A stretch of 13,374 nt of DNA, taken from assembly GCA_050290485.1 (NCBI GenBank), contig JBNKHS010000073.1, positions 1-13,374 of the forward strand, read 5' to 3'. Below are positions 777 through 12,900 of the stretch, in pieces. The stretch is from Candidatus Promineifilaceae bacterium. Its GTDB lineage: Bacteria; Chloroflexota; Anaerolineae; Promineifilales; Promineifilaceae. Position numbers and translations under genes: made by a program. The notes under the pieces are model-generated. The model was not told where the DNA came from, searched no databases, and saw nothing but the letters and a program-made list of their open reading frames with translations. Positions within the stretch are counted from its first letter, which is position 1; every line of letters begins with the position of its first letter.

Positions 777-817
777 GGAATGAAATAATCAACTTTGGAT
801 TATATCCACCAATTCCT

Positions 818-984
818 CCACATGACGACAGTAGAATTCATCATAAGGAAATGAGGTGCTGGTTTTAGCGCCTTTTTCGTTGATAGAGCTGATGCGTAAA
901 TGCCAATGGCAGACATTGCAATTGTCTCGTTTGGAGGAGTTGGACATGCTGGTTACCCCATGGCGATCATTTAAAAACGGCCGT
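818..984. repeat. Copy A of an imperfect direct repeat that brackets the GNAT gene. It ends in the palindrome ACGGCCGT (977-984).
   Basis: Region 818-960 aligns with 1591-1732 at ~85% identity with two 1-3-nt indels. Both copies are followed by AAAAACGGCCGT. Confidence 0.7.
977..984. repeat. ACGGCCGT iterated palindrome, copy 1. It is non-coding or in the remnant, and homologous to the copy at 1768.
   Basis: Exact octamer. Flank is aaaaACGGCCGTatac. Confidence 0.9.
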
Positions 985-1008
985 ATACAATAACAATATC
1001 TTCACACT

Positions 1009-1012
1009 GGAG
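1009..1012 (+). promoter_or_regulatory. Ribosome-binding site (GGAG) for the GNAT gene.
   Basis: GGAG lies 6 nt upstream of ATG 1019. Confidence 0.5.
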
Positions 1013-1018
1013 AATATA

Positions 1019-1540
1019 ATGATTGAAATTAAGGCAGCAACAACAGAGACAGATTTTGAAAATGCAGGCGAGTTTTATCGTGCTTTTGGTAATTGGCTTG
1101 AACAAACTTACCCTGAGATTATGTTTTTTATGGAACCGATGATTAAGGAACTGGACATTGAAAGTAAATCTTTGCAATCTGTTTATGCGTCACCTACCTG
1201 GAAGTTGCTGATCGCTACATTGAATGGCCAGCCAGCGGGAACTGTAGGATTGTCTGATTTAGGGAATCAGGTGTGTGAAATGCGGCGCATGTTTGTTGAT
1301 CCGAACTTTCGTGGGCATGATATTGGCCGTCAATTAGCGCAAGCCATTATTGCCGAGGCACGGGAAATGGGTTACGAGCGTATGAAATTGAGCACAGGCC
1401 CGCGCCATTACGCGGCATTGGGGCTTTATGAATCGCTTGGGTTTAAGGATGTATCGCCTAAAACAGATGGGGCTGAAATTCCAGAAAACATTCCTGCAGA
1501 TTTGGCGCGAGGGGTTGTCACGATGGAGTTGGACTTATAG
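1019..1540 (+). CDS. GNAT-family N-acetyltransferase (173 aa).
   Basis: It has the acetyl-CoA-binding motif of the GNAT fold: 'VCEMRRMFVDPNFRGHDIGRQLAQAIIAEAREMGYERMKLST', i.e. R/Q-x-x-G-x-G/A after beta-4. The ATG has an upstream GGAG. The stop TAG is at 1538-1540 and is convergent with, and overlaps by 6 nt, the gene on the other strand. Confidence 0.9.
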   Translation: MIEIKAATTETDFENAGEFYRAFGNWLEQTYPEIMFFMEPMIKELDIESKSLQSVYASPTWKLLIATLNGQPAGTVGLSDLGNQVCEMRRMFVDPNFRGHDIGRQLAQAIIAEAREMGYERMKLSTGPRHYAALGLYESLGFKDVSPKTDGAEIPENIPADLARGVVTMELDL

Positions 1541-2242
1541 GCCTTGAAGCTCATTTGATAACCATTGGTCCATTCTTTCTGTTAACTGATCCACATGGCG
1601 ACATTGAAATTCATCATAAGGAAATGAGGTGCTGGTTTCAGCACCTTTTTCGTTGATATAGCTGATGCGCAGATGCCAGTGGCCGATGTTGCGATTGTCT
1701 CGTTTGAGAAAACTTGAGGTGCTAATTACGGCCGTTTTATGCCAAAACATCTCACGCTTACTCAAAAACGGCCGTGTTGGTAACCGTATCGCCAATCCTT
1801 CATTTGTAAGTAACATCCCATAATGGCAAATGCCTCGTGCCTGTGCCGCCTGTTCTTGTCGTTGTCCGATAAGCAAAACAATGCGGGCAATTGACTCATA
1901 CAGTAAATAAGCAATACCAATATACCAACCGCAGATAAGGGCAATTAAAAGTAATGAAGATGGCCAATTGTCACGGATAATTGTGAGGTTTGGCCAAATG
2001 GGTTGGGTGATTGCTTCATAAATCATCAGGAAGACAATGCTTAGCAAGACGACACTCCAAAAGATGCGTGACCACAATTGATACATTACATTGCTTGCAA
2101 TCAACTGCTCGTCGTGTAAGAAGATTCCATCTATGAATTGTTGGCGAGTGGATGCTGGTAAAGGTTCCATCTGCAAATTATGCCATCCCCTGCTAACATT
2201 GACGAAGTGAATCAGGAGACCGATAATAACGGCCGTCTTCAA
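1535..2242 (-). CDS. Membrane protein with two N-terminal TM helices and a ~110-aa soluble C-terminal domain. It may be a bacterial PH-like (YdbS/YdbT-type) membrane protein. The start is uncertain.
   Basis: Hydrophobic segments are 'IFWSVVLLSIVFLMIYEAI' and 'SSLLLIALICGWYIGIAYLLY', followed by a hydrophilic C-terminus. The ORF-track start at 2242 is a TTG without an SD. An internal ATG (complement of 2168-2170, 'MEPLPAST...') follows an AGGGGA ~15 nt upstream and would give 1535..2170. Its C-terminal ~66 codons are duplicated at 789-1001. Confidence 0.65.
   Translation of the reverse strand: MKTAVIIGLLIHFVNVSRGWHNLQMEPLPASTRQQFIDGIFLHDEQLIASNVMYQLWSRIFWSVVLLSIVFLMIYEAITQPIWPNLTIIRDNWPSSLLLIALICGWYIGIAYLLYESIARIVLLIGQRQEQAAQARGICHYGMLLTNEGLAIRLPTRPFLSKREMFWHKTAVISTSSFLKRDNRNIGHWHLRISYINEKGAETSTSFPYDEFQCRHVDQLTERMDQWLSNELQGL
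1728..1735. repeat. ACGGCCGT iterated palindrome, copy 2.
   Basis: Exact octamer, aattACGGCCGTttta. It lies in the membrane-protein CDS and is read as K-T-A-V-I. Confidence 0.9.
1768..1775. repeat. ACGGCCGT iterated palindrome, copy 3.
   Basis: Exact octamer, aaaaACGGCCGTgttg. It lies in the membrane-protein CDS but in a different frame (T-R-P-F-L). It is the only coding copy not read as Thr-Ala-Val. Confidence 0.9.
2229..2236. repeat. ACGGCCGT iterated palindrome, copy 4.
   Basis: Exact octamer, aataACGGCCGTcttc. It lies in the 5' region of the 1535..2242 ORF and is read K-T-A-V-I if the TTG start is real. Confidence 0.9.
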
Positions 2243-2267
2243 ATAATAATAGGACGCAGATCATACG

Positions 2268-2315
2268 GATGAACCTGATTTACCTGATCTTTTTTATCTT
2301 GAAATCAGGTTCATC
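2268..2315. promoter_or_regulatory. Perfect 14-bp inverted repeat with a 20-nt spacer in the divergent intergenic region. It is a candidate operator or stem-loop.
   Basis: GATGAACCTGATTT (2268-2281) is the exact reverse complement of AAATCAGGTTCATC (2302-2315). CCTGAT is also directly repeated inside. The element lies between the divergent starts of the membrane gene and the dehydrogenase gene, so it is not a terminator. A possible -35 TTGAAA (2299-2304) overlaps the right arm. Confidence 0.4.
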
Positions 2316-2391
2316 AGGAATATCTGCGAGCGACCGCAGGAAGCAATCAGCGTTCTATTTTAAATACATGTTCCCAAACGGAGAGAATAAC

Positions 2392-3285
2392 ATGAGCGAA
2401 GTAATTGGATTTGTTGGTTTAGGTATTATGGGGCGTGGGATGGTGCGCAACTTGCTAAAGGCGGGTTTTGAAGTGCGTATATGGAATCGTACTGTCAGCC
2501 GTATGGATCCACTCGTTGAGGCTGGCGCATACCCAGCGACAAGTCCTGCCGATGTTGCCGCGCACAGCAGCATCATCTTTATCTGTGTCAGCGATACACA
2601 TGATGTGGAAGAAGTTATCTTGCGTGAAAATGGGATCATCTTCGGAGCAGAAGCAGGTGACTTGGTAGTCGATTGCAGTACCATCAGCCCTCAAGTGACA
2701 CAGCGTATTTCTGATATTTTGGCGCAAAAAGAGGTCAAAATGCTCGATGCTCCCATTAGTGGTGGCAGCGAAGGCGCCGCCAACGGCACCTTAAGCATTA
2801 TGGTTGGTGGCGATGCCGATCAATTTGAACGCGCTTTACCGGCATTTCAGGCTATGGGCAAGACGATTACCCATGTTGGGGGCACAGGTGCGGGGCAAAC
2901 TGTCAAGTTAGTCAATCAAATATTGGTTGTGATCAATATGTTGGCGGTTAGTGAAGCACTGCTCTTTGCCGAAGCGGGTAATCTCGATTTGCAAAAGACG
3001 CTGGAAGCGGTTTCTGGGGGCGCGGCAGGTAGCTGGATGCTGTCTAATCGGGGACCGCAAGTCGTGGAACGAGATTGGCGACCTGGGTTTACGATTGATT
3101 TGCAGCAAAAAGATTTGCGTCTTGTGCTGGATGCAGCGAATGCGATGGGTGTGCCAATGGTAGGCACAAGTTTGGTTTTCAATTTGTACCGTGCATTGCA
3201 ACAACAAGGTTTAGGTGCTGAAGGGAATCATGCATTGGCAAAAGCTTTAGAGAATTTAGCTGGTTTTCAAATAGCAGCTGATTAG
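2392..3285 (+). CDS. NAD(P)-dependent oxidoreductase of the 3-hydroxyisobutyrate dehydrogenase / 2-hydroxy-3-oxopropionate (tartronate semialdehyde) reductase family (297 aa).
   Basis: The N-terminal Rossmann motif is 'IGFVGLGIMGRGMVRNL'. The family-typical motifs 'DAPISGG' and 'GAGQTVKLVNQ' (catalytic Lys region) are present. The ATG at 2392 is preceded by GGAGAG, 7 nt upstream. The ORF-track start at 2269 adds 41 unlikely residues across the palindromic intergenic region. The stop TAG is at 3283-3285. Confidence 0.9.
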   Translation: MSEVIGFVGLGIMGRGMVRNLLKAGFEVRIWNRTVSRMDPLVEAGAYPATSPADVAAHSSIIFICVSDTHDVEEVILRENGIIFGAEAGDLVVDCSTISPQVTQRISDILAQKEVKMLDAPISGGSEGAANGTLSIMVGGDADQFERALPAFQAMGKTITHVGGTGAGQTVKLVNQILVVINMLAVSEALLFAEAGNLDLQKTLEAVSGGAAGSWMLSNRGPQVVERDWRPGFTIDLQQKDLRLVLDAANAMGVPMVGTSLVFNLYRALQQQGLGAEGNHALAKALENLAGFQIAAD

Positions 3286-3339
3286 GTATTCGCTATCTAT
3301 CGAGTAGAAGCTTAATATTTATACACAAGGAAAAGGAGC

Positions 3340-4095
3340 ATGTTTGATTTAAGTGGACAGGTTGCCCTTGTTACTGGCGGCTCGAAGGGGTTGGGCTTGG
3401 AGATGGCAACGGCGCTTGCGGAAGCAGGGGCGGATGTTGTTTTGGGGGCGCGGACAAAAGCAGAAGTAGAAACGGCCGCTTCTGAGCTTGCCGCCAAAAC
3501 AGGACGAAAAGTTGCTGGTTGGGTGATCGATGTGACGCGAAAACGGTCTGTGGAGCAGTTTGTACACCAGACGATGCAGATGTTTGGGCGCATTGATATA
3601 TTGGTGAATAATGCGGGTGTTAACATTCGCGAACCTATTACGGAAATAAGTGATGAGCATTGGCGACAAGTGCAGGGTGTGAATGTAGATGGTGTTTTTT
3701 ATATGTGCCGTGCGGTTGTGCCTCATATGCAAGCGGCGGGATATGGCCGTATCATTAATGTTGGCTCGGCGTTGAGTCATGTCGGGTTGGCAGAGCGGGT
3801 TAGCTACTGCACCTCCAAAGGGGCGGTTTTGCAACTAACGCGCACTTTGGCGCTTGAGTTGGCACAAACAGGCATTACGGTGAACTCAATTAGTCCCGGT
3901 CCGTTCAAAACAGAAATGAACACCCCGTTGATTGGCACAGAAGCGGGTGATGCTTTAATCAAGCAAGTTGTCCCCATGAATCGTTGGGGTGAACTTCATG
4001 AAATTCGCCCGGCAATTCTCTTTTTGGCTAGCCCTGCGGCTGGGTTTGTGACGGGAACGGCCGTTAATGTCGATGGTGGCTGGACCGCCGCGTAG
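3340..4095 (+). CDS. Short-chain dehydrogenase/reductase (SDR), gluconate 5-dehydrogenase / 2-deoxy-D-gluconate 3-dehydrogenase-like (251 aa).
   Basis: It has TGGSKGLGLEMA (TGxxxGxG), NNAG, the catalytic S...YCTSK (YxxxK) and PGPFKTEM. By recall, the overall sequence is close to Ga5DH/IdnO-type SDRs ('SPGxFKTEM', 'RWGxxxEI..A..FLAS'). An AAGGAAAAGGAG RBS lies upstream of ATG 3340. It lies 55 bp after the preceding dehydrogenase gene, so the two are probably an operon. Confidence 0.9.
   Translation: MFDLSGQVALVTGGSKGLGLEMATALAEAGADVVLGARTKAEVETAASELAAKTGRKVAGWVIDVTRKRSVEQFVHQTMQMFGRIDILVNNAGVNIREPITEISDEHWRQVQGVNVDGVFYMCRAVVPHMQAAGYGRIINVGSALSHVGLAERVSYCTSKGAVLQLTRTLALELAQTGITVNSISPGPFKTEMNTPLIGTEAGDALIKQVVPMNRWGELHEIRPAILFLASPAAGFVTGTAVNVDGGWTAA
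4057..4064. repeat. ACGGCCGT iterated palindrome, copy 5 (full 10-mer AACGGCCGTT).
   Basis: gggAACGGCCGTTaat, inside the SDR CDS. It is read G-T-A-V-N. Confidence 0.9.
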
Positions 4096-4113
4096 CAGTG
4101 TTCAGAAGCCTGT

Positions 4114-4148
4114 AATCAGTTTTCAGTTACTTTCACTGAAAACTGATT
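4114..4148. terminator. Hairpin between convergent genes. It is a candidate bidirectional terminator.
   Basis: AATCAGTTTTCAGT (4114-4127) is the exact reverse complement of ACTGAAAACTGATT (4135-4148), with a 7-nt loop. A third copy of ACTGAAAACTG follows at 4149-4159. The hairpin lies 19 bp after the SDR stop and 20 bp before the SPFH-gene stop. The stem is AT-rich and no clean U-run follows, so intrinsic-terminator strength is doubtful. Confidence 0.35.
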
Positions 4149-4167
4149 ACTGAAAACTGGCTCCGAA

Positions 4168-5529
4168 TTACGGCGTTGCTGTTGGAGAAACGGCCGTTGC
4201 CGTTGGCTCAACTGTTGGTGTTGGTTCAATGACGGCCGTCGGCTGTGGTGTGGCTTCAATGGTTGCCACAGGCGCATTATCTACATCCGAATTCATCAGA
4301 AACGCAAAAGGAAGACTCCCCTCTCCCCCAGAGATGACAAGTGTGTTGGGCACGAGCCCTTGTGATCGTTGCGCTAATTCATAATCGGTCAATGCTGGAT
4401 ATTGCGACAGTTGTTCGCCGCTTGCTCTAAGATTTTCAGCGGCGGCGTTCCCTGCTACGACGGTTGCTGTTGCTGCTGCCTGTGCTTGGTCAACCAACGT
4501 CATGTTTTCAATGCTTTGCGCCGTCGCATATGCTTCTGCCTGCACTTTGCGTTGTTGCGAAGCAAAGTTGTCATTAATCACCGCTTGCACATTTTTGTCG
4601 GAATAAATAAGCCCCTCTGATCCCCCCAGAGATGTAATTGTAATGCCCAATGGTTCAAACTGTGCTTTGGTCCGTGCGTATACGTTTTCAAAGATTTCTC
4701 GTTTATCGGCACGCCCTTCTTCTAAGGTACGTGAGCCAAATTCGTTAAACAGTTCCGCTTGTACAAAGCCACGAATATTTTCATCGATGACCTCTGGCAA
4801 GCTTTTTCCGCTAAAGTAGTAGAGGAATTTGGCCGCGTTTTGCTCTTCGACAAGGGCACTACAGGTCGCACCAACAGCAAAATCAATTGATTCTCTTGAT
4901 TCGACGCGAAAGGCTTGGTTTGATATCGATGTGCCTGTGTCATTGGCAGATGTCCATTCGCGGGTGACTGGCGTACGATCAACAATGATCACGGCGACAG
5001 AAGGAATGAACTCAATTTGCCAAGGCATACGCCCAATGCGATGTTCACGCATCGAAATTTCTACTTGTTTGGAAGCGACTTGTTTTCCTTCTAAAAATTC
5101 AATTGATTGAAATTGCAGTTGCGTCGTTGCGTCCCCAACTAACGGGACGACAAACGCGGTTTCATTTGGTTTGATTTCGATGATTTGTGTTGCACCGTAC
5201 GGTTTGCAAGCGGTCAACAAAATTACCGAGAATCCACCTATAAAGAGTAAATATTTGCTTGTTTTTAAGGTTTGTCTCTCCTGTACTTTTTTCCATAGCA
5301 CGGGGAGCCAAATTAAAGCAAGAATGATGAGAGAAACGGCCGTAACAATAATCGTCACGACATCGTAGCGAACAAAAAATTGAGAGCCAGCAGCCACAGA
5401 ATTGCTGTTTAGTAGCTGAGATGGGGCAGCTTGCGCTTGCGCAACTGCACGTAAATTATCACTATAAATCCAATGAAAAAGGCCATAGCCAATTACAATT
5501 AGAATCGTTAACGAAGCACGAATAAACAT
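4168..5529 (-). CDS. SPFH-domain (band 7 / stomatin-prohibitin-flotillin-HflKC superfamily) membrane protein with a C-terminal Pro/Thr-rich repetitive tail (453 aa).
   Basis: It has N-terminal hydrophobic helices (MFIRASLTILIVIGYGLFHWIY, VVTIIVTAVSLIILALIWLPVLW, YLLFIGGFSVILLTA). The SPFH-like core is '...IRGFVQAELFNEFGSRTLEEGRADKREIFENVYARTKAQFEPLGITITSLGGSEGLIYSDKNVQAVI' followed by an Ala/Gln-rich helical region. The tail is 'IEATPQPTAVIEPTPTVEPTATAVSPTATP'. I chose the ATG at the complement of 5527-5529 because it has a strong GGGAGG SD 7 nt upstream. The ORF-track start at 5592 has no SD. Confidence 0.8.
   Translation of the reverse strand: MFIRASLTILIVIGYGLFHWIYSDNLRAVAQAQAAPSQLLNSNSVAAGSQFFVRYDVVTIIVTAVSLIILALIWLPVLWKKVQERQTLKTSKYLLFIGGFSVILLTACKPYGATQIIEIKPNETAFVVPLVGDATTQLQFQSIEFLEGKQVASKQVEISMREHRIGRMPWQIEFIPSVAVIIVDRTPVTREWTSANDTGTSISNQAFRVESRESIDFAVGATCSALVEEQNAAKFLYYFSGKSLPEVIDENIRGFVQAELFNEFGSRTLEEGRADKREIFENVYARTKAQFEPLGITITSLGGSEGLIYSDKNVQAVINDNFASQQRKVQAEAYATAQSIENMTLVDQAQAAATATVVAGNAAAENLRASGEQLSQYPALTDYELAQRSQGLVPNTLVISGGEGSLPFAFLMNSDVDNAPVATIEATPQPTAVIEPTPTVEPTATAVSPTATP
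4190..4197. repeat. ACGGCCGT iterated palindrome, copy 6 (AACGGCCGTT).
   Basis: agaAACGGCCGTTgcc. It lies in the PT-rich tail coding region of the SPFH gene and is read A-T-A-V-S on the coding strand. Confidence 0.9.
4232..4239. repeat. ACGGCCGT iterated palindrome, copy 7.
   Basis: aatgACGGCCGTcggc. It lies 42 bp from copy 6 in the tandemly repetitive tail and is read P-T-A-V-I. Confidence 0.9.
5337..5344. repeat. ACGGCCGT iterated palindrome, copy 8.
   Basis: agaaACGGCCGTaaca. It lies in the SPFH gene TM region and is read T-A-V-S. Confidence 0.9.
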
Positions 5530-6071
5530 CGTAAAACCTCCCGTTTTGTATACAAAAAACGCGAAACAAAGCCGCATTGCAGTCAATTGCATTGCAACTT
5601 AAGTCAACCTGTTCAAAGATACATTTGGCCAATACAAGCAAACCAAAAAGAACCTGTTGAAGAAGGTTGAGAATTTAATATTTAACTAAAAACAAGGAAA
5701 AAGGTTTTACGCGATAGGGGGAGACGTATTTTTAAGCATGTCCAAATCCAGCCTTTCCACCGGGGCGTTTTCTACTCAGTGAGACATCGGTCGTAGCCCC
5801 TGCGCCGACCCATGCAGTTCATGAAATTTGTTGATTTTTAGGCTCTTTTACGAGATGTTCGAATCAACCGAAATTATCTTACTCCTAGAGAAATTTCTTG
5901 TCAATATGAATTCGCTGGTTGCAGACCTTGATCAAAGTACAAAAATCTTAACGCAAAGAACGCGAAGGATGGAAGATGCAAAGCTTTTTCCTTTGGCTTT
6001 TTTTGTCTCTTTGCCACTTTGCGTTGAAAATCGATTTTGTAAAAGTGTGCACGGGTTTGGCTACAACCCCA

Positions 6072-6656
6072 TTATTGCTTGATGTTTTCTTGATAATAAG
6101 CAATCTCTGCCTTGGCTTCACGTCGAATAAGCGCGTGGATGCCGCCCAGCAGCGCGTACAAGATAGCAAGGATAATGAGCAAGAATTTGATTGCGGCACA
6201 CCAATAAGCAACTGTGGCCCACAGGTCGTTGTTTGAACCGAGTAAGAGTTGAATTAAGGAGACATTTTCGATGTAGTCAAATACGGCTGCCACCCAGACG
6301 CCCCAAGCCAGCCCTGTGCCCAAGTTGTTCATCCAACCCACAAAGCGCCCGGAAGCGACAACAACAGCTAGTGAGATGGCTAATGCATAAATAATGGGAT
6401 ATAAAAAGTCGAGCCCCATGCTCAAACCAGCATGAATTTTTGCTTGTGTATCCCATGAATCGATCATCGCCTGTGCATTTACGGCCGTTCCTGCAAATTC
6501 AAAAGAGATGATGCCCGATGGAGCGGCTGCAGTTGTCAATGGCGCACCGACTCGCGTCATGATCATCGACATCAACAAGGCTAAGGCGATAAAAACCCAC
6601 ATCCAGCGTTTCCGTATTTTGGGTTCCATTTTGGCAAAAGGTGGTGTAAGGTTCAT
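6072..6656 (-). CDS. Hypothetical integral membrane protein, ~4 TM helices (194 aa).
   Basis: An AGGAG SD lies 6 nt upstream of the ATG (complement of 6654-6656). Hydrophobic helices are WMWVFIALALLMSMIM, FLYPIIYALAISLAVVVA, LAWGVWVAAVF and AIKFLLIILAILYALLGGI. The stop TAA is the complement of 6072-6074. I do not recognise a family. Confidence 0.75.
   Translation of the reverse strand: MNLTPPFAKMEPKIRKRWMWVFIALALLMSMIMTRVGAPLTTAAAPSGIISFEFAGTAVNAQAMIDSWDTQAKIHAGLSMGLDFLYPIIYALAISLAVVVASGRFVGWMNNLGTGLAWGVWVAAVFDYIENVSLIQLLLGSNNDLWATVAYWCAAIKFLLIILAILYALLGGIHALIRREAKAEIAYYQENIKQ
6481..6488. repeat. ACGGCCGT iterated palindrome, copy 9.
   Basis: atttACGGCCGTtcct. It lies in the membrane-protein CDS and is read G-T-A-V-N. 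Confidence 0.9.
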
Positions 6657-6689
6657 AAACTACTCCTGTGTAAATAAACGTATTGTAGG

Positions 6690-6735
6690 GGCGAACCGAT
6701 GTGTTCGCCTAGGGCAGACATACAGGTCTGTCCCT
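6690..6735. promoter_or_regulatory. Two adjacent dyad symmetries in the divergent promoter region between the membrane gene and the Crp-family gene. They are candidate operator sites.
   Basis: The first is GGCGAAC-cgatgt-GTTCGCC (6690-6709), a perfect 7-bp inverted repeat with a 6-bp spacer. The second is AGGGCAGAC-atacag-GTCTGTCCCT (6711-6735), an inverted repeat of ~9-10 bp with one inserted base. They lie 35-80 bp upstream of the membrane gene start and ~130-170 bp upstream of the regulator start. Confidence 0.35.
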
Positions 6736-6785
6736 ATCCAATGAATTTTCATTTATGGTGGCTATGGCGTGTCGATGAAGTCTCC

Positions 6786-6813
6786 TTGTATGAAAAGTAA
6801 GAGATTCTATAAT
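6786..6813 (+). promoter_or_regulatory. Sigma-70-like promoter for the Crp/Fnr-family gene.
   Basis: TTGTAT (6786-6791), a 16-nt spacer, then TATAAT (6808-6813). A predicted transcript start near 6820 leaves a ~43-nt leader before ATG 6863. Confidence 0.4.
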
Positions 6814-6862
6814 GGGTGCGTCGTAAATATAAACCTGATCTCAAAAAAGGGAAAGTCAATTT

Positions 6863-7549
6863 ATGCCACAAACCGATTCTTCCAGCAAAGTTGGTTATTT
6901 GTCGAGTATTCAAGTGTTTCGTGATTTAACACCAGAAGATTTGGCAATGATGGACAAACAAACCACAATGTCCACTTGTCAATCGGGTAAGATTTTTTAT
7001 ATGCCTGAAGATAGTGGGGAAGTGTTGTTCCTGTTGAAAAAAGGACGTGTGCAGTTGTACCGCATTGCCCCCAATGGGAAAAAACTGGTTGTGGCGACAT
7101 TAGGCCCTGGGGCAATATTTGGTGAAATGTCTTTGGTAGGCCAAGGCATGCACAATACCTTTGCGGAATCCATTGACGAATGTTTGTTGTGTGTGATGAG
7201 CCGTTCTGATGTGGAACGGCTGGTCCGCGAGAAGCCAGAAGTTGCCTTTCGTTTTGTTGAGGCGATGGGAAATCGTTTGACCCAATTGGAGGCGCGTTTA
7301 GAGGATATTGCTTTCAAAAGTATTCCTGCGCGTCTTGCTAACTTATTGCTCGATTTGGATAAAGAACAGGGAAACAAAGATATTGTCAAAGGGTTTACGC
7401 ATCAAGATTTAAGCGAGATGTTGGGCACGTACCGCGAAACGATTACACAGACTTTGAATGATTTCAAAGCCGATGGCTTAGTCGATATTGGCCGTAAAAA
7501 AGTGTATTTAGTGAATAGAGCCGCCTTGCAAGAGATGGCGGAACTATAG
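6863..7549 (+). CDS. Crp/Fnr-family transcriptional regulator (cNMP-binding domain plus C-terminal HTH), 228 aa.
   Basis: The cyclic-nucleotide-binding beta-roll is 'GKIFYMPEDSGEVLFLLKKGRVQLYRIAPNGKKLVVATLGPGAIFGEMSL'. The C-terminal HTH is 'FTHQDLSEMLGTYRETITQTLNDFKADGLV'. The recognition-helix residues are R-E-T-I-T-Q, so it is not a canonical CRP/NtcA-type recognition helix. Confidence 0.9.
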   Translation: MPQTDSSSKVGYLSSIQVFRDLTPEDLAMMDKQTTMSTCQSGKIFYMPEDSGEVLFLLKKGRVQLYRIAPNGKKLVVATLGPGAIFGEMSLVGQGMHNTFAESIDECLLCVMSRSDVERLVREKPEVAFRFVEAMGNRLTQLEARLEDIAFKSIPARLANLLLDLDKEQGNKDIVKGFTHQDLSEMLGTYRETITQTLNDFKADGLVDIGRKKVYLVNRAALQEMAEL

Positions 7550-7557
7550 CCATGAGT

Positions 7558-7651
7558 GCCCATTCACAGAATAAATGCTTCGCTTGCGAATTGGTGAATG
7601 GGCTTAAAGTAGCCGTTCGGTTCAAAACTGCTAAGTTAATTCCCAACGGCT
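7558..7651. other. Two long-loop hairpins between convergent genes. They are possible transcription-termination or RNA-stability structures.
   Basis: GCCCATTCAC (7558-7567) pairs with GTGAATGGGC (7594-7603) across a 26-nt loop. AGCCGTT (7611-7617) pairs with AACGGCT (7645-7651) across a 27-nt loop. No U-tract follows. I call this region weakly. Confidence 0.25.
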
Positions 7652-7668
7652 ACTAAGCGACTCACAAT

Positions 7669-9081
7669 TTATGCTTTGGCATAGCGCAAAGATAGGTTTG
7701 TTTTAATGACATTTGCCAGGATGTCGGGGCGCATGAGCAGGGTTGGTGGCGCGATCATGTGTTGCACCCGGAAAAAGGCATCGGTAATTTTGATGTTATG
7801 CGGCATTGCTTTGAGCACCATTTTGAAGTAACGACCAATCAATTTGGAGGCAGGGTCTAATTCCTGTTTGCCTTCTGTGTTCGGCCAGCGCATATCTTCA
7901 TTGGTTGCGGTTTGCCAGGGGATGGCCAGTTCTTTTTTGAGTTGTTTCTGGAATTTTGCGGCCAATCCAGCCAGTTCGTTGTCATTAGCTTGTTGTGTTT
8001 GCTCGCTGAGGCATTGGTCCAGGAGTTGGCTGGCAACTGCGGCTAGGGTCATGCCTTGACCGTATACTGGATTGAGGGCGTAGACGGCATCGCCTACAGC
8101 GACGAAGCCTTCCAGGTAGCGATCAAGTTTGTCGTAACGGCGCAGCCGATTTTCTGCATTGCGATACCCCCAGATGGGTGAAACGGCCGTTGCTTCTTTG
8201 ATGGCGTCGTACACAGCTGGGGAGACGAGGGATTGGGCAAATTCCAAAAATCCAGCTTCATCGGTGGGTGGGTGATCGCCATTCATGCCGATGAGGGAAA
8301 GATGCCACAGATTACCTTCCATGGGGAGGATGATTGCACCGCGTGTAACTTCTGGCGGGTTGGGCATGATGTACAATGTTTTCCACTCTTCGGTGAATGT
8401 TGGCGGAATTTCGTAGATGCGGGTGGCGTAACCAGGAAAGGCGTTAACACTTTGTTCTGCTGGTGGTGTGTATCCCAGTTGGGTAAACCATTGGGGTGCT
8501 TTTGAGGATCGCCCGCTGGCATCGACAACAAGTTCGGCAGGGATATCTTGAATACGGCCGGTTACGCGATTACGAATTTGGATACCAATAACGCGCTGAT
8601 CGCCATCATCGGTGCAAAGCGATTCAACTTCGCTGTTTGCTTTGAAGGTAATGTTCGGATTTTCAGCCACACGTTGGTAAATAGTGTAATCGAGCAGACG
8701 GCGGCTGGCAGCAATGGCTTCCATGGGTGTGTCGTAATGCGGGAGCCAACCATCGGGAAAGCGCATTTTAAGGTCGTTGCCAAAGTTCAAGCGGTTGGCG
8801 CCACCGGCGAGTAAATTTTGCCGGAAGCCAGGAAAATGTTCTTCCAAAATTCGTTCGCCCCGCAGCAGCAGGATGTGTGGGTGGCGGGCTTGCGGAACAC
8901 CTTTGGAAAATTCGGCACCGTTTGCTAGCTCGCTGCGTTCGATGATGGTCACTTGGGCAAAATGTTTAGATAGGACATGGGCAGCTGTTAAACCAGCCAC
9001 GCTGCCACCAATGACGACGGCACGCGCAAAGGGTGCTTCTGTGTTATTTGGGGTGAATGGGGATGGGAATTCGCTAGACAT
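7669..9081 (-). CDS. FAD-dependent oxidoreductase / monooxygenase of the PHBH (p-hydroxybenzoate hydroxylase) fold, 470 aa.
   Basis: The N-terminal dinucleotide-binding motif is 'AVVIGGSVAGLTAAHVL' (GxGxxG). A later motif 'FVAVGDAVYALNPVYGQGMTLAAVAS' (GD...P..GQG) is typical of flavin monooxygenases. An AAGGAG SD lies 8 nt upstream of the ATG (complement of 9079-9081). The stop TAA is the complement of 7669-7671. There is no WxWxIP halogenase motif. Confidence 0.85.
   Translation of the reverse strand: MSSEFPSPFTPNNTEAPFARAVVIGGSVAGLTAAHVLSKHFAQVTIIERSELANGAEFSKGVPQARHPHILLLRGERILEEHFPGFRQNLLAGGANRLNFGNDLKMRFPDGWLPHYDTPMEAIAASRRLLDYTIYQRVAENPNITFKANSEVESLCTDDGDQRVIGIQIRNRVTGRIQDIPAELVVDASGRSSKAPQWFTQLGYTPPAEQSVNAFPGYATRIYEIPPTFTEEWKTLYIMPNPPEVTRGAIILPMEGNLWHLSLIGMNGDHPPTDEAGFLEFAQSLVSPAVYDAIKEATAVSPIWGYRNAENRLRRYDKLDRYLEGFVAVGDAVYALNPVYGQGMTLAAVASQLLDQCLSEQTQQANDNELAGLAAKFQKQLKKELAIPWQTATNEDMRWPNTEGKQELDPASKLIGRYFKMVLKAMPHNIKITDAFFRVQHMIAPPTLLMRPDILANVIKTNLSLRYAKA
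8183..8190. repeat. ACGGCCGT iterated palindrome, copy 10 (AACGGCCGTT).
   Basis: tgaAACGGCCGTTgct. It lies in the FAD-oxidoreductase CDS and is read A-T-A-V-S. Confidence 0.9.
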
Positions 9082-9171
9082 ACAAATAACTCCTTGTTGT
9101 TATAAATGTGGTGCAATAGGTTGCACAGGTTTATTATCCAGTTAAACATCCCTTAATCGTCCCACTTCTCG

Positions 9172-9189
9172 ATTTAAGCGTAGATCAAT
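9172..9189. repeat. 18-bp direct repeat with a palindromic core, copy 1 (ATTTAAGCGTAGATCAAT).
   Basis: It matches 9761-9778 (ATTTAAGCGTAAATCAAT) at 17 of 18 positions. The core ATTTA-agcg-TAAAT is a 5-bp-arm dyad, perfect in copy 2. Copy 1 lies ~90 bp upstream of the FAD-oxidoreductase start codon on the minus strand. Confidence 0.45.
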
Positions 9190-9197
9190 CTGGGATA

Positions 9198-9230
9198 GGT
9201 TTAGTCCAGCTTTTGCCTTTTTTAGTCCAG
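9198..9230. repeat. Tandem direct repeat TTTAGTCCAG x2, spaced 21 bp centre to centre.
   Basis: TTTAGTCCAG occurs at 9200-9209 and again at 9221-9230, two helical turns apart. It is a candidate regulator-binding site upstream of the FAD-oxidoreductase gene. Confidence 0.3.
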
Positions 9231-9320
9231 AATTTGGGGAGATAGCTGTTAGCGAGGGATGGGAAACAGAGAATATTCAACGCCAAAAACCGTTTTCGAT
9301 TACCCGTGAACCATTTGAAA

Positions 9321-9328
9321 ACGGCCGT
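9321..9328. repeat. ACGGCCGT iterated palindrome, copy 11 (AACGGCCGTT), intergenic.
   Basis: ttgaaAACGGCCGTTcca. Confidence 0.9.
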
Positions 9329-9474
9329 TCCAAGAAAAACGCATCCAAGAGTATACAAACAAAAATGCGCCTCTACCCAATTACACTATAACTATTGAGC
9401 AAACGCGCTAGCATTTTGTAATGACCAAATCAATTTACGGAATTATTATCACTATCCCATGGCCAAGAGATCCG

Positions 9475-9645
9475 CTACACGAATTGCCCATATCGGCTAC
9501 AAATCTTTACTAACCAACGATCCTTCATAAGCGGCCAGATGAACATTGTGACCATGTTGGTCATTGCTTTCAAAATAATAAAAATAAACGTCATCCTGAT
9601 ACAAAACGCGGTGGCCCAACCAGCGACAACGAACAACTTTTTCAT
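9475..9645 (-). CDS. Possible small hydrophobic protein (56 aa from the MKK start, 66 aa from the first ATG), unknown function.
   Basis: This is the only ORF in the 880-bp intergenic region. The product 'MKKLFVVAGWATAFCIRMTFIFIILKAMTNMVTMFIWPLMKDRWLVKICSRYGQFV' has two hydrophobic stretches. A weak GGAAG lies 4 nt before the MKK ATG (complement of 9643-9645). I see no homology, so it could be a chance ORF. Confidence 0.25.
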   Translation of the reverse strand: MKKLFVVAGWATAFCIRMTFIFIILKAMTNMVTMFIWPLMKDRWLVKICSRYGQFV

Positions 9646-9760
9646 ACGCTTCCACTTCACTAGATCACTTCTCATCCTTTATTCGATTTGATCTAATCCA
9701 CCTCTGCCAATTATTGATTTGCAAGTTAAACGTGCTCCCTTCTAGAGCCATGCGGATTGA

Positions 9761-9778
9761 ATTTAAGCGTAAATCAAT
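9761..9778. repeat. 18-bp direct repeat with a palindromic core, copy 2 (ATTTAAGCGTAAATCAAT).
   Basis: See copy 1. Copy 2 lies ~200 bp upstream of the TPR-peptidase gene start. Confidence 0.45.
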
Positions 9779-9944
9779 ATATGTGTATCCCCAGAAAGTG
9801 ATGATTGTTCAACAAGCAAAATTTAATAACCAATGTATTACATAAAGCAAACGTAATTGCCACTGCTCGCATTTTATCGAACGACTTGATCCAGCTTACT
9901 TATTTATGGTATGTTCCTGTGAAAAAATCCAAATTAGTTGATTA

Positions 9945-9952
9945 ACGGCCGT
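9945..9952. repeat. ACGGCCGT iterated palindrome, copy 12 (AACGGCCGTT), 26 bp upstream of the TPR-peptidase start codon.
   Basis: attAACGGCCGTTtta. Confidence 0.9.
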
Positions 9953-9977
9953 TTTATTGGGAGCTGAAAGTAGAATC

Positions 9978-12900
9978 ATGAAAATCGAATCTCATCAATT
10001 AACGCCCATTCGGGAGCTTTATAACAGTGGATCCTATCTGCAGGCCTATCAGGTTGCTGAAAAACGAGGTCCATTAAATGAATGGGAAGGAAGCGAAGCA
10101 CGCATATTAGCAGGAAGATTAGTTGCCCATTTAGGAGCACCTCGTTTAGCTCATTACCATTACTTAAAAGCGTATCGGGAAACGCCAGCTGAGCCAGAAG
10201 TACGCTATTACTACGCCCTATACCAGCTGCATCGACGTGGACCATACGCCACTTGGCAAACATTGAAGCAATTTGATGATTTAGATAGCGAGCCCGACGA
10301 CATCCTCGCCTCCAGATACGCTTTAGTTGCGGAAACAGCGGCAATCCTGCGTGATTTTACAACAGCGGAAACATGGATAATGCGTGCAAAAGAGATCACA
10401 CCAAACTCTCCTTGGGTATATCAAACCTATGCTCAAGTTAGGCATTATGCAGATAAGCATCAAGAATCGCTCGACTTACTGCAGCACGCCCTGACTTTAC
10501 ATCCCTGGTATCGCCCAGCAGTGCAAGCCACGGCACACACCCTCACCCTGTTGGGACGAGATGATGAAGCAATCGAATTTTTAAAACAAGCCGATCAACA
10601 TATCGAATGTAGCGGCGTCGTTGCCCAATTAATAGGACTACAAATCGAACAAGAACAATACGAGGATGCACACCTTCATTTGGAACGTGTTTTGCAACTC
10701 ATGCCCTTGATGGAAAAACAGATGGGGCAATGGATAGCTGGCGTACAATCCACTTTAGCATACTTTCAAAATGACATTGACGCGGCCATCATGTATGCTC
10801 AAAAAACGGGGGATTCGTTTCATGAAAAAATTGCCCACCATTTAATGGAAACGAAAGACAAACCAACAGAACGCAAGGTATTACCTGTTGGTTTTGTACG
10901 CCAACATCATATGACTTGTGCTCCAGCAACACTTTCCGCAATCAGTGGATATTGGTCAATGCCTGCTGAGCATCTACAAGTTGCAGAGGAAATATGCTAC
11001 AACGGAACATCTGCTTACAACGAACGACGTTGGGCAGAAGAAAATGGTTGGTATGCACGGGAATTCACGATCACAGCCGCCAACACAAAAACATTAATTG
11101 ATCATGGCATTCCCTTCACATTCGCAACTGTCGATCTAGGTAATGCCCATTTACAAGCAGTTTTAGGCTACGATGAGCGTCGGCAAACATTATTGGTTCG
11201 CGATCCTTATAGTCGCCACTCTCGCGAAGGCTTGACCACCGCGCTTTTAGAAAGATACGCGGCAACTGGGCCTCGGGGAATGGCCTTGGTCCCTACCCCA
11301 CAAAAAGAGGTGCTCGCCCAAATCGATTTATTGGAAAGTGATATTTGGGATCTTCTTCATCAGTTTGATGGCGCACTTGAAACCCATAAACTGAAACAAG
11401 CGACAGCGATACTTGAAGAAATGAAGCATAAGGACACAACAGGACGCCTCACTTTAGACGCAACCTATCGCCTAGCTATTTATAACAGTAATCCAGTGGC
11501 CATGTTAGCTGCTGTGGAAGATCTGTTGGCGCTTTACCCCGAAGATGAACGTTTGCAATTCAGTCGTTTAAAACATTTAAAGGATTTAACGCGACACAGC
11601 GACCTGCTTTCAGCTTATGCACAAATATGCCAAAAGCCAAATGTTCATCCCATCTTCTTAGAAGGATACGCCCAGGAAATTACCCATGATGCCCGTACAC
11701 AAGAGAAAGCAATTTCTTTATTACGAAAAGCATTGCAAAGGTGGCCCACAAAAGAATCAATCTATATCGCTTTAGCCGATGCGCTCTGGAATCAACGTGA
11801 ATTTGACGAGGCATTAGAATTGTATCGTTTCGCCGCCTGCCTGAATGATAAGGATGAATTCTTGGCACGATCCTACTTTACGGCAGCCCATTTCAGAAGA
11901 GAAACGGCCGTTGCCCTAAACTTTTTACAACTTCGATATCAACGTCTTGGCCAACAATCGAATTTCCCTGCCAGAACGTTGGTTTGGGCTTACGAACGCA
12001 TTGATCAGCGCATTGATGCCTTACAAGTTATTGATGAATCCTTGCAGCATTGGTCAGATAATGGGGACTTCCTTCTTTTTGTTGCTGATTTCTATGGCCA
12101 TTTAAGTAATGAATATCGAAAACGTGCCTTTGCGTTATTAAAAAGGGCAAAGAATAACTCCAAGCAGCAAGAATGGCTACGAACTGCCGCTCGGATAACG
12201 GCCGTAAATGCAGATTTACCACGCTCATTAAGCTTATGGCAAGAAGTATTAAAACAACAACCCTTAGCAATGGATGCGCATGAATCTATTGCCAATTTAT
12301 TGCTCAAAATAGAAGGGCGCGAGGCAGCTATTGCCCATCTCCAACAGGCAGTGGATGCCTATCCATACCATCACCCGCTTCATCGTTTATGGCTATATTG
12401 GCTACGAGATGCACCAGCGGAGGTTGCTGCCCCCGCATTTCGTCGCGTTATCGCGATGGACAATTCCGATGCGTGGGTACAGCGACAATATAGCTATTTT
12501 CTTATTGAGCAGCGTCAATTTCAAGAAGCAGCACAAGTGGCCGAAACTGCATATGAGCTTGATCCAGTCCACCCGGCTTATCATCATTTACAAGGATTGC
12601 TATTAAAAAAACAAGGCAATTTAGAAGAGGCAAAGCAAGCTTTTTACCAATCCATTCGGTTGGCGAGTAACATCGAACCCTCAGTTGCCGACTTGCTCAG
12701 TTGTTGTGACTCAGCAGATGAACAGCGGAATGCACTTGAGTTTGTGCGCAAAGAATTGATGAGCAAAGTCCTTTTAGGCGATGAGATGCTAATGTATCGT
12801 GCTTACGGCTCTCGTTTGCTAGATCCCCAGGAGATGTTGTCCCAATTACATGATGTCTTGTTGGCTCAGCCAGGATTAGCACAAACGTGGTCAGCCTACA

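Follow-up and report, generated by a model that had tools for sequence, protein, structure and literature searches.

ACGGCCGT, a HIP1-like highly iterated palindrome of a Chloroflexota clade

The window analysed here, 13,374 nt in length, is an entire MAG contig of a Promineifilales/Ardenticatenia-like Chloroflexota lineage. It carries an ORF followed by a GNAT gene bracketed by a direct repeat, two membrane ORFs, an SDR gene, an SPFH/Band-7 gene, a FAD monooxygenase gene and a TPR/peptidase-C39-like gene, and copies of the palindromic octamer ACGGCCGT lie both inside genes and in the spaces between them. The features are as follows; octamers and their one-off variants are listed without strand, and labels such as L212 denote other loci used for comparison.

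817..984, + strand: direct repeat copy 1, flanking the GNAT gene; homology ends with ACGGCCGT at 977-984
977..984: ACGGCCGT, intergenic, with ORF 30-776 on one side and the GNAT gene on the other; closes repeat copy 1 on the right; kept in L212
1590..1775, + strand: direct repeat copy 2; homology ends with ACGGCCGT at 1768-1775
1728..1735: ACGGCCGT in hypothetical membrane ORF 1535-2242 (- strand), phase ACG-GCC-GTn (Thr-Ala-Val)
1768..1775: ACGGCCGT in ORF 1535-2242 (- strand), phase 2, unlike all other coding copies; closes repeat copy 2 on the right
2229..2236: ACGGCCGT at the 5′ end of ORF 1535-2242 (- strand), phase 0 only if the start is TTG at 2242; not kept in L214
3472..3479: ACGGCCGC, outer-base one-off variant in the SDR gene; identical variant in L001
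3743..3750: ATGGCCGT, decayed site in the SDR gene; synonymous TAT/TAC
4057..4064: ACGGCCGT in SDR gene 3340-4095 (+ strand), phase 0; kept in L001 and L212
4190..4197: ACGGCCGT in SPFH/Band-7 gene 4168-5592 (- strand), phase 0
4232..4239: ACGGCCGT in the SPFH/Band-7 gene (- strand), phase 0; ACCACTGT in L212
5336..5343: ACGGCCGT in the SPFH/Band-7 gene (- strand), phase 0
6481..6488: ACGGCCGT in membrane ORF 6072-6656 (- strand), phase 0
8183..8190: ACGGCCGT in FAD monooxygenase gene 7669-9081 (- strand), phase 0; kept in L003 and L210
8554..8561: ACGGCCGG, one-off variant in the FAD gene; exact octamer there in L002, L003, L004 and L210
9321..9328: ACGGCCGT within AACGGCCGTT, intergenic
9945..9952: ACGGCCGT within AACGGCCGTT, 26 nt before the TPR/peptidase-C39-like gene, which starts with ATG at 9978; kept in L210
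11904..11911: ACGGCCGT in the TPR/C39-like ORF (9978 to beyond 13373, + strand), phase 0; kept in L210
12198..12205: ACGGCCGT in the TPR/C39-like ORF (+ strand), phase 0; kept in L210
13165..13172: TCGGCCGT, outer-base one-off variant in the TPR/C39-like ORF

A recount agreed with the earlier note that the window holds 14 exact copies of ACGGCCGT, with one start shifting from 5337 to 5336, against 0.08-0.13 expected: a second-order Markov model from which the sites had been masked gave 0.08, and 200 dinucleotide-preserving shuffles of the window gave a mean of 0.12 and a maximum of 2. The runner-up palindromic octamers have 3 copies each, and the HIP1 word GCGATCGC, already said to be missing, was indeed found in the window 0 times, as was CGATCG. 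The 10-mer AACGGCCGTT was again counted in 6 copies and A at position -1 in 11 of the 14 octamers (11 copies of AACGGCCGT). There are 17 CGGCCG hexamers, 14 of them with A..T flanks and 3 stray, and the 5′ base is A at 31 of the 34 CGGCCG half-sites. The three one-mismatch copies named previously (ACGGCCGC, ACGGCCGG and TCGGCCGT) do exist, two of them at corrected positions (8554 for 8553 and 13165 for 13168), but a fourth, ATGGCCGT at 3743, had been overlooked.

The copies are independent octamers with unrelated flanks, as had been argued, and not one dispersed repeat family, since beyond position -1 the flanks are without information (relative entropy at most 0.12 bit). In orthologue alignments, the comparison that had been suggested as a check, the sites arise through substitution, without indels. 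What recurs is the octamer alone, which extends only weakly, by A/T, to AACGGCCGTT.

Of the 14 copies, eleven fall within ORFs and three (977, 9321 and 9945) are non-coding. As described before, 10 of the 11 share the phase ACG-GCC-GTn and 1768 does not (10/0/1 over the three phases), with the proviso that 2229 counts as coding only when the true start codon is the TTG at 2242. This strong frame bias had been put forward as a defining property; it exists in the window, but it is passive and not special, because codon shuffles predict it (59/33/8% over the three phases, compared with a pooled observation of 64/27/18) and every phase is enriched (55-, 42- and 110-fold for phases 0, 1 and 2). ACG-GCC-GTn dominates because Thr-Ala-Val is the cheapest encoding of the word, and use of each frame is proportional to the ease of encoding it there. 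The octamer also occupies non-coding DNA at ~1 per kb, a density equal to that of coding DNA, in keeping with the claim that it is present in both. Selection on the protein for a Thr-Ala-Val motif, or an artefact of codon usage, could be read from the 10 of 11 coding copies that encode this tripeptide. It is refuted by the non-coding density and the enrichment of phases 1 and 2, as well as by the use of a single encoding, ACGGCCGTn, in 64 of 67 Thr-Ala-Val tripeptides where codon usage predicts ~10%, and we see practically no chance that it holds. The tripeptide itself is ~6-fold over-represented (67 versus 11.6 expected), so that it is the DNA word that drives the peptide. The force behind ACGGCCGT acts on DNA, not on protein.

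The two repeat copies share ~82% identity with an 18-nt indel, and copy 1 partially duplicates the 3′ end of ORF 1535-2242. The repeat brackets the GNAT gene with octamers at its ends, as first observed, and the right-hand ends of both copies coincide exactly with ACGGCCGT at 977-984 and 1768-1775. The repeat pair is also found in L212; L214 has no repeat pair and carries another cassette in place of GNAT. That the palindromes act as recombination or deletion hot spots gains from the repeat ending on octamers, but a single repeat boundary is the only support, and the proposal is suggestive only.

The excess is not confined to the window. Loci of relatives, picked by protein similarity rather than by the motif, contain 0.7-1.5 ACGGCCGT per kb and are all equally rich, with 129 copies in 112 kb against 1.8 expected, and 32 copies in the 21 kb of L087. 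Among 80 loci of GTDB species representatives, 77 had 2 copies or fewer and three were rich (15, 15 and 11 copies), all of them Chloroflexota MAGs; the cyanobacterial loci in this set, which served as a positive control, had HIP1 at 7-22 copies, and TGGCGCCA was the top palindrome in two Calothrix loci. The SRP54 of one relative indicates a clade near Ardenticatenaceae, Ca. Leptofilum and Promineifilaceae, and the clade carrying ACGGCCGT is broad, spanning 45-65% GC. In a metagenome contig, L164, the word lies inside a 12-nt tandem repeat, which is unrelated. Viral contigs with the same signature provided 40 stretches as rich as the bacterial loci, and the density is equal in independent assemblies (NCBI, ENA, JGI and Logan). 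A dispersed mobile repeat of REP or MITE type, a local cluster due to chance or an artefact of assembly, for which nothing speaks beyond the initial local count, is refuted by this lineage-wide density together with the unrelated flanks and the indel-free alignment of orthologous sites; its probability is negligible. ACGGCCGT is truly a hyper-abundant palindrome, conserved over a whole Chloroflexota clade and common in viral contigs of the same signature, and we found no prior report of it in the literature.

Copies are made singly by point substitution, and some of these substitutions change amino acids. In the FAD monooxygenase, sites were gained by the change of AEPV to ATAV and of DQR or NER to NGR; the copy at 8183 encodes A-T-A-V in place of the A-(E/K/Q)-P-(V/I/A) of more distant orthologues, and it was therefore gained through amino-acid-changing substitutions. 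Since L212 has ACCACTGT at 4232, that site was gained or lost through several substitutions, and the site at 3743 was lost from the window when its position 2 went from C to T, because L001, L212 and L214 all have ACGGCCGT there. Once formed, copies persist in place far longer than their surroundings, synonymous sites included: between L212 and L214, whose nucleotide identity is 79%, conservation extends to 22 of 23 sites but to only 18% of octamers matched for GC (p ~6e-16), and four-fold third positions within sites agree in 44 of 45 cases (98%) versus a background of 47%. The sites of the window itself are kept in 8/9 cases relative to L212, 4/5 relative to L214 and 4/4 relative to L210. 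Conservation by itself cannot distinguish purifying selection from site-protective repair. Spacing between sites is near random overall (CV 0.99, and 0.65-0.8 in some loci), and therefore nothing clearly points to selection for even coverage; no spacings below 26 nt were seen. For HIP1, a periodicity of 10-90 kb has been described.

Outer bases differ by lineage around a constant CGGCCG, from A..T to W..W (A or T in L002) to N..N, the last in L085 and L086, where a roughly 10-fold CGGCCG excess comes with no flank preference. One-off variants pile up at the outer base, where T exceeds expectation 6.1-fold and G 2.6-fold; inner transversions are at or under expectation. C-to-T variants are raised at C5 (16 versus 4.5 expected) and C2 (23 versus 13.9 expected), with no elevation at C6; going by sequence alone, this may be a hint of cytosine modification. 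Neither a cognate DNA methyltransferase nor a Vsr-like gene could be identified, and a link between ACGGCCGT and a methyltransferase or repair system remains an inference. In ~0.5 Mb, m5C methyltransferases were found in no bacterial HIP-rich locus and in one viral stretch, a sample too small to show absence. This stretch, L415 (= L443), holds the only m5C methyltransferase found in CGGCCG-rich DNA; the enzyme is without close relatives, and homologues sharing ~50% identity with it lie in phages that are not CGGCCG-rich.

The population biology of ACGGCCGT is the same as that of cyanobacterial HIP1, with a different word. Both are palindromic octamers at ~1 per kb (HIP1 enriched 15-300-fold, ACGGCCGT ~70-170-fold, or roughly 100 times chance) that are found in every reading frame as well as in non-coding DNA, spread via substitution rather than insertion, and are conserved between genomes above background. 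In both, the inner hexamer is hardly over-represented outside the octamer, the palindromes are nested (GGCC in CGGCCG in ACGGCCGT; GATC in CGATCG in GCGATCGC), and one-off variants concentrate at the first and last base, as Elhai noted for HIP1. They differ in belonging to Chloroflexota and cyanobacteria, respectively, and in their outer bases, A..T as opposed to G..C, so that ACGGCCGT has no flank G-meC dinucleotide; moreover, HIP1 has the cognate methyltransferases DmtC and DmtA, whereas none has been identified for ACGGCCGT. Alternate cyanobacterial HIPs (GGGATCCC, TGGCGCCA/GGCGCC, CAGGCCTG and TCGATCGA) are likewise lineage-specific replacement words on a methyltransferase recognition core, which for CAGGCCTG is GGCC as in ACGGCCGT, but they are found in sporadic strains or small groups with only moderate enrichment, whereas ACGGCCGT extends over a broad clade. 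As a non-cyanobacterial, independent counterpart of HIP1, it offers a test case for why such palindromes exist.

In E. coli, the frequency of the Dcm methyltransferase site is shaped by the coupled Vsr repair system, CCWGG being up and CTWGG down, by less than 2-fold and with T-variants depleted; set against this, the effect for ACGGCCGT is ~100-fold and T-variants are mildly enriched. ACGGCCGT could be a functionless by-product, in which a methyltransferase with mismatch or very-short-patch repair turns near-misses into the word until a mutational equilibrium is reached without any selected function. For HIPs, a ratchet of this kind was put forward by Elhai; viral DNA is enriched too, as expected if whatever DNA replicates in the cell is subject to the process, and one-off variants cluster at the outer positions. 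This reading is opposed by the extreme positional conservation reported above, which in the case of HIP1 was held by Xu et al. to favour selection over continual replenishment. Elhai's G-meC ratchet accounts for the G..C flanks of HIP1; as it stands, it cannot explain ACGGCCGT, because A/T outer bases cannot make the G-meC of the published model. Vsr-type T:G repair is disfavoured as the driver because T-containing one-off variants are enriched rather than depleted. We give the by-product reading little weight and regard it as distinctly improbable.

Neisseria DUS and Pasteurellaceae USS occur at ~1 per kb, are clade-specific and conserved, and are tolerated in coding regions in their cheapest frames; they are asymmetric 9-12-mers, and a receptor is known (ComP for DUS). 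ACGGCCGT resembles them in density, clade specificity, frame use set by codons and conservation, and, together with its even spread over coding and non-coding DNA, the analogy suggests that it may tag self-DNA for natural transformation or recombination as a palindromic uptake-type signal. The octamer, possibly methylated, would be read by the machinery of competence or recombination, and selection would maintain it because its carriers would be preferentially taken up or integrated. Recent HIP1 work, in which transformation was stimulated in a methylation-dependent manner and HIP1 was proposed as an uptake sequence, could by analogy point the same way, and the equally rich viral contigs would fit. 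DprA and a gene with a TfoX_C domain are present in the fetched loci, yet both are widespread. However, the uptake sequences known so far are asymmetric, whereas ACGGCCGT is palindromic with no uptake receptor identified, competence in the clade is without any data, and the lineage-varying outer bases are more suggestive of a site recognised by an enzyme whose flank preference drifts. A self-DNA tag is unlikely, although it keeps some claim to consideration, and it overlaps with the explanation that we prefer without excluding it.

The suggestion that ACGGCCGT is a highly iterated palindrome resembling HIP1 but differing from it in the word is supported, having survived the chance-cluster and repeat-family tests. 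We favour, with moderate confidence, the explanation that ACGGCCGT is a lineage-wide HIP of the Promineifilales/Ardenticatenia-like clade, built on an EagI-type CGGCCG core and probably linked to methylation, its mechanism being inferred. Under this explanation, the hexamer CGGCCG would be the primary recognised element, marked by a resident cytosine DNA methyltransferase, none having been identified, which would probably be an orphan derived from CGGCCG restriction-modification systems seemingly common in the phylum. A second component, perhaps methylation-coupled repair or nicking or a self-DNA recognition or recombination factor, would read the outer A..T and give a directional advantage to site gain and retention until a density of ~1 per kb is reached. 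CGGCCG is the specificity of EagI/XmaIII-type restriction-modification. Several sister Chloroflexota loci have 0 CGGCCG versus 10-17 expected, with normal GGCC counts, which looks like the avoidance expected under restriction, and, judged from these counts only, CGGCCG would be a recognised word within the phylum. The clade studied here, for which no such enzyme was identified, reverses the EagI/XmaIII-type expectation, with a ~10-fold CGGCCG excess in place of avoidance.

The octamer ACGGCCGT, a palindrome consisting of a CGGCCG core with an outer A and T, occurs 14 times in the window as exact copies, compared to a mean of 0.12 and a maximum of 2 in 200 dinucleotide-preserving shuffles, and to 0.08 copies expected under a second-order Markov model with the sites masked. 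It is the top palindromic octamer of the window, where the runners-up have 3 copies each, and both the cyanobacterial HIP1 word GCGATCGC and CGATCG are absent there. Thirteen of the positions listed for these copies in an earlier note were confirmed, and the remaining one, placed at 5337, is at 5336. The related words AACGGCCGT and AACGGCCGTT are present 11 and 6 times, respectively, and the window also holds four one-mismatch copies:

3472: ACGGCCGC
3743: ATGGCCGT, overlooked in the earlier note
8554: ACGGCCGG
13165: TCGGCCGT

CGGCCG occurs 17 times in the window, 14 of these within ACGGCCGT, leaving only 3 copies outside the octamer versus about 1.7 expected; 31 of the 34 CGGCCG half-sites have a 5′ A, and GGCC outside CGGCCG is at expectation. 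The 3′ third of the window, which at first seems to lack ORFs, is a single long TPR/peptidase-C39-like ORF that continues past the window end, and scans of the window with Rfam and for tRNAs gave no matches.

The possibility that the window merely contains a local chance cluster was tested with orthologue loci of the FAD monooxygenase, which were picked by protein without using the motif. The named relatives of this protein are Anaerolineales, Chloroflexota and Ardenticatenaceae MAGs, and the orthologue loci were as rich in the octamer as the window, indicating that the excess extends beyond it.

Copies of ACGGCCGT in protein-selected loci
L002 (2.1-Mb contig): 21 in 21.4 kb
L003: 27 in 21.0 kb
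L004: 26 in 17.9 kb
L087 (GCA_020634415.1): 32 in 21.4 kb

Pooled, the protein-selected loci contain 129 copies versus 1.8 expected in 112 kb. The sample behind this enrichment consists of ~10-20 kb pieces of ~10 genomes and includes no complete genome; in the loci sampled, ACGGCCGT meets the threshold for a highly iterated palindrome (HIP), that is, a palindromic octamer at least 15-fold over Markov or compositional expectation. The SRP54 protein of L214, a syntenic relative of the window, has 82-89% identity to proteins of Ardenticatenaceae, Candidatus Leptofilum, Candidatus Promineifilaceae and Anaerolineales, and the NCBI taxonomy places these matching taxa in Chloroflexota, Ardenticatenia and Promineifilales.

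The control set comprised 80 loci of GTDB species representatives with distant homologues (at most 51% identity) among the matches listed. ACGGCCGT was the top palindrome in three Chloroflexota MAGs of these 80 loci (15, 15 and 11 copies), and the other 77 loci among the matches listed had at most 2 copies. The cyanobacterial loci of the set contained GCGATCGC at 7-22 copies, except that in two Calothrix loci (L057 and L076, from NIES-4105 and PCC 7103) the top palindromic octamer was not HIP1 but TGGCGCCA, at 10 and 7 copies, consistent with the published alternate HIP of Calothrix. The counting method thus recovers known HIPs. A pattern scan of metagenomes yielded ~30 further contigs with many copies (HIP-rich), at GC contents of 36-67% and densities up to 3.8 per kb, together with many two-copy chance matches in high-GC contigs; the metagenome pool took in only loci reaching 4 or more copies and a density of 0.7 per kb or higher. 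Since this pool was chosen by the motif, the unbiased enrichment figure is that of the protein-selected loci. The top density was observed in L148 (1-12463, 65% GC; 47 copies in 12.5 kb), which encodes Baseplate_J, Tail_P2_I and DUF6519 proteins in a baseplate/contractile-injection-like cluster. In another, unrelated metagenome contig (L164 689-1634) the octamer lies inside a 12-nt tandem repeat, (ACGGCCGTGTAC)n, a different phenomenon.

Another reading of the copies is a dispersed repeat of the REP or MITE type, and the earlier note had stated that membership of a single repeat family would refute its claim. Such a repeat needs shared similarity of at least 20-40 nt, a mainly intergenic location and insertions, and none of these was met. 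Across the flanks of 129 sites, position -1 is A in 62% (0.43 bit), while the information is no more than 0.12 bit at -2 to -4 and no more than 0.06 bit farther out; with flanks uninformative beyond -1 and no indels at the sites, the copies are independent octamers. Their density in the pooled loci is equal in coding and non-coding DNA, at ~1.1 per kb.

The other reading of the copies within genes is that they reflect a peptide motif. As claimed in the earlier note, 11 copies in the window lie within ORFs and 10 of these 11 read ACG-GCC-GTn (phase 0, Thr-Ala-Val), the sole out-of-phase copy being that at 1768. Among the pooled sites, 64, 27 and 18 are in phases 0, 1 and 2, and 20 are non-coding. 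Shuffling codons predicts a split of 59/33/8% across the phases, so that any departure is towards over-use of the phase least compatible with the word (chi-square p = 0.004), and the 10/0/1 split of the window is just mildly more skewed than this null (p = 0.02). Because the codon shuffles reproduce the phase split, the frame bias, although present in the window, is a passive consequence of codon compatibility and not a special property of the word. Enrichment over codon-shuffled genes is 55-, 42- and 110-fold in phases 0, 1 and 2, and with all three phases and non-coding DNA enriched, an origin in a peptide motif was ruled out. Instead, the DNA word measurably distorts protein composition: Thr-Ala-Val occurs 67 times versus 11.6 expected, a ~6-fold excess, and 64 of the 67 occurrences are written ACGGCCGTn.

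The codon alignment of the FAD monooxygenase revealed how sites come and go. At the site at 8183, the window and L003 encode A-T-A-V and the other orthologues A-(E/K/Q)-P-(V/I/A); a gain in L004 reads N-G-R (AAC GGC CGT) where the others have D-Q-R, N-R-R or N-E-R. The sites in this alignment come without indels and arise by nucleotide substitution. Loss was seen at position 3743, where the window has ATGGCCGT, whereas ACGGCCGT is present in L001, a strain of 97% identity, as well as in two relatives at greater distance, indicating that the window lost the site by a C-to-T change.

Once present, the sites are strongly conserved. Syntenic relatives were obtained via cluster members, with nucleotide identities of ~88-90% (L210 and L212) and ~79% (L214). 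Between L212 and L214, 22 of 23 sites were kept, compared to 18% of equal-GC octamers (binomial p about 6e-16), and 44 of 45 four-fold degenerate third positions within sites were identical, compared to a background of 47%. For the window, 8 of 9 sites were conserved against L212, 4 of 5 against L214 and 4 of 4 against L210, including the non-coding sites at 977 and 9945. The key HIP1 result of Xu et al., site conservation, is thus reproduced here for another word.

The preference at the outer bases varies with lineage. Most lineages prefer A..T, while L002 half-sites take A or T (75 A and 42 T of 134). L085 and L086 (GCA_029979785.1 and a near-identical ENA contig) are ~10-fold enriched in CGGCCG, with 59 and 37 copies, and show no A..T flank preference, having 8 and 1 octamers; this lineage may show the same system at an earlier stage or in an alternative form. 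For HIP1, the G-meC ratchet of Elhai requires a G 5′ of the methylated C and explains the G..C flanks; with A..T as its outer bases, ACGGCCGT does not allow this ratchet to be transferred directly.

One-base deviants were counted in 232 kb of pooled, motif-selected HIP-rich bacterial DNA. At the outer base, deviants to T were 6.1-fold and to G 2.6-fold over expectation, with those to C at 0.86-fold, the same outer-position pattern that Elhai reported for HIP1, while inner transversions were about or below expectation (at most 1.1-fold). Among inner transitions, C-to-T at the fifth position of the octamer (ACGGTCGT/ACGACCGT) was found 16 times versus 4.5 expected (3.5-fold, p = 2e-5), and at the second position (ATGGCCGT/ACGGCCAT) 23 times versus 13.9 expected, a mild increase (1.65-fold, p = 0.016); C-to-T at the sixth position was not elevated in this pool. 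A repair-driven bias of the Dcm/Vsr type would deplete the C-to-T neighbours of the word, and both kinds are enriched instead, which argues against a Vsr-type driver. The pattern of transitions hints weakly that the cytosine C5 (GG-C-C), and perhaps C2, is modified and prone to deamination.

In many other Chloroflexota loci the same hexamer is absent or nearly so:

L023: CGGCCG 0, expected 10.5
L033: CGGCCG 0, expected 16.9
L056: CGGCCG 0, expected 16.8
L022: CGGCCG 0, expected 11.7
L088: CGGCCG 3, expected 12.3
L011: CGGCCG 1, expected 8.8

L006 and L058 also lack CGGCCG, and apart from L088 and L011 these loci have 0 versus 6-17 expected. GGCC counts are normal in these loci, and the absence of CGGCCG with normal GGCC suggests restriction avoidance of the EagI type; the avoidance indicates that CGGCCG is a word recognised by enzymes in Chloroflexota. 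Separately, L084 has no GGCC versus 68 expected, suggesting avoidance of the HaeIII type.

The word is shared by viruses. Two IMG/VR pattern scans yielded 225 motif-selected stretches, of which 40 were HIP-rich. These 40 span 299 kb at 46-62% GC and contain 597 copies where 10.3 are expected, and 65% of their half-sites have a 5′ A. One of them, L327, contains 31 copies in 15 kb and carries a phage head module at 3102-12917 (terminase large subunit, portal, head-morphogenesis protein and major head protein). Viral contigs of the same signature are therefore also subject to, or make use of, whatever drives the word. That the hosts belong to the clade carrying the octamer is inferred from the shared motif, and prophage and lytic states were not distinguished.

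In two viral stretches the hexamer reaches ~20 times expectation and full octamers are a minority: L415 (= L443, IMGVR_UViG_3300049045_000044), with 80-93 CGGCCG versus 4-4.5 expected, and L407, with 71. L415 encodes a 447-aa m5C DNA methyltransferase of unknown specificity (1253-2596, = L443 7001-8341), the PDB matches of which are confined to the catalytic half, the target-recognition half being without a characterised match. Its nearest homologues, at ~50% identity (L440-L442), are from phages that are not CGGCCG-rich, and none of its 79 viral homologues lies in CGGCCG-rich DNA. A tie between this enzyme and the CGGCCG excess is thus a lead rather than evidence, a single anecdote.

We searched all fetched DNA for methyltransferases by regular expression and tblastn, with M.HhaI and Vsr queries. 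The bacterial HIP-rich loci yielded neither a methyltransferase nor a Vsr-like gene, which is uninformative for ~0.5 Mb of HIP-rich DNA sampled at 1-2 such genes per genome. Matches to m5C enzymes came only from non-HIP-rich loci and the viral stretches L415 and L361, and the candidate N4/N6 methyltransferase motifs (DPPY and similar) of HIP-rich loci proved spurious. An Mrr-like gene (Mrr_cat/NA-iREase1), a putative methylation-dependent restriction enzyme, adjoins the FAD gene in L002 (7579-8685). DprA and TfoX_C genes were seen incidentally in the fetched loci, and there are no uptake data for ACGGCCGT.

The data demonstrate that sites are gained by substitution and conserved in position, that the force acts on the DNA, that the core is a hexamer whose outer bases differ between lineages, and that viral DNA carries the word; the mechanism that we propose is inferred. 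CGGCCG may be marked by a resident cytosine methyltransferase of EagI-type specificity, for which no cognate enzyme was identified and which would plausibly descend from restriction-modification systems of the kind that the avoidance in sister lineages points to. A-CGGCCG-T would then be recognised by a second reader that favours gain and retention of sites, acting perhaps in methylation-coupled repair or nicking, or in recognition of self DNA or recombination, as is now proposed for HIP1. On this basis we put forward, as a tentative proposal that falls somewhat short of probable, a second independent origin of a HIP: a word avoided in sister lineages and ~10-100-fold over-abundant in a Promineifilales-like clade, whose orphaned methyltransferase and A-CGGCCG-T reader were domesticated into a genome-wide, selectively maintained mark shared with viral contigs of the same signature. 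If this is true, the A/T outer bases would rule out the current model of HIP1 origin in its G-meC-specific form, and the clade would be a natural replicate in which to separate the repair, uptake and nucleoid-structure hypotheses.

ACGGCCGT shares with HIP1 its over-representation, its presence in all frames and in non-coding DNA, spread by substitution, conservation and outer-base deviants. It is not HIP1 itself, since both the word and the taxon differ (Chloroflexota rather than cyanobacteria). In the searchable literature, which does not cover subscription-only papers, those on highly iterated palindromes concern cyanobacteria only, and within the same limits there is no earlier report of ACGGCCGT, of HIPs in Chloroflexi, Anaerolinea or Promineifilum, or of relevant CGGCCG methylomes. 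We rate a HIP with a new core, a new flank logic and a new phylum as what is new here. HIP1 has remained unexplained in cyanobacterial genomes for thirty years. Here an unrelated phylum has a HIP of its own, built on another word, which is likewise gained by substitution, conserved even at synonymous positions and accompanied by one-off variants at its outer bases; this indicates that HIPs are a general phenomenon rather than a peculiarity of cyanobacteria. It also offers an independent test bed: its A..T flanks contradict a G-meC-specific ratchet, its flanks vary between sister lineages (A..T, W..W or none), neighbours avoid CGGCCG, and viral contigs share the word. Long-read activated-sludge metagenomes are the source of many genomes of the clade, so that methylation of the motif could be called directly from existing raw data. 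For these abundant wastewater filaments, ACGGCCGT is in addition a strong compositional marker for binning, for assigning viral contigs to hosts and for recognising recently acquired DNA.

Spacing between sites was near-exponential at short range (CV 0.99; stretches of at most 21 kb), and the pooled HIP-rich loci gave no evidence of regular short-range spacing, although none of 153 inter-site spacings was below 26 nt versus about 5 expected if random.

In the window, the GNAT gene (1019-1540) is bracketed by a ~170-nt direct repeat, in which 817-984 is a partial copy of 1590-1775, the 3′ end of the neighbouring minus-strand ORF, at ~82% identity with an 18-nt indel. In both repeat copies, homology stops at the final base of a ACGGCCGT. 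The earlier note had suggested that such octamers act as recombination or deletion hot spots; the repeat does end on them, but one case cannot establish a role in recombination. The arrangement echoes the HIP1-flanked smtB deletion known from the HIP1 literature. The repeat pair was found in L212 and not in L214, which has a peptidase-M78/DUF4411 cassette in place of the upstream ORF and GNAT, and the region looks like a variable cassette site.

A synteny break was observed at 7550-7654 of the window, between the end of the Crp gene (7549) and the stop of the FAD gene (7669). It is unique to this MAG contig and reflects either a genuine rearrangement or a chimeric assembly. Positions 1-7550 match L212 and 7654-13374 match L210, two different large contigs of one relative. 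A P450 gene follows FAD in L210, L003 and L004, and a bPH_2 gene follows Crp in L212 and L214.
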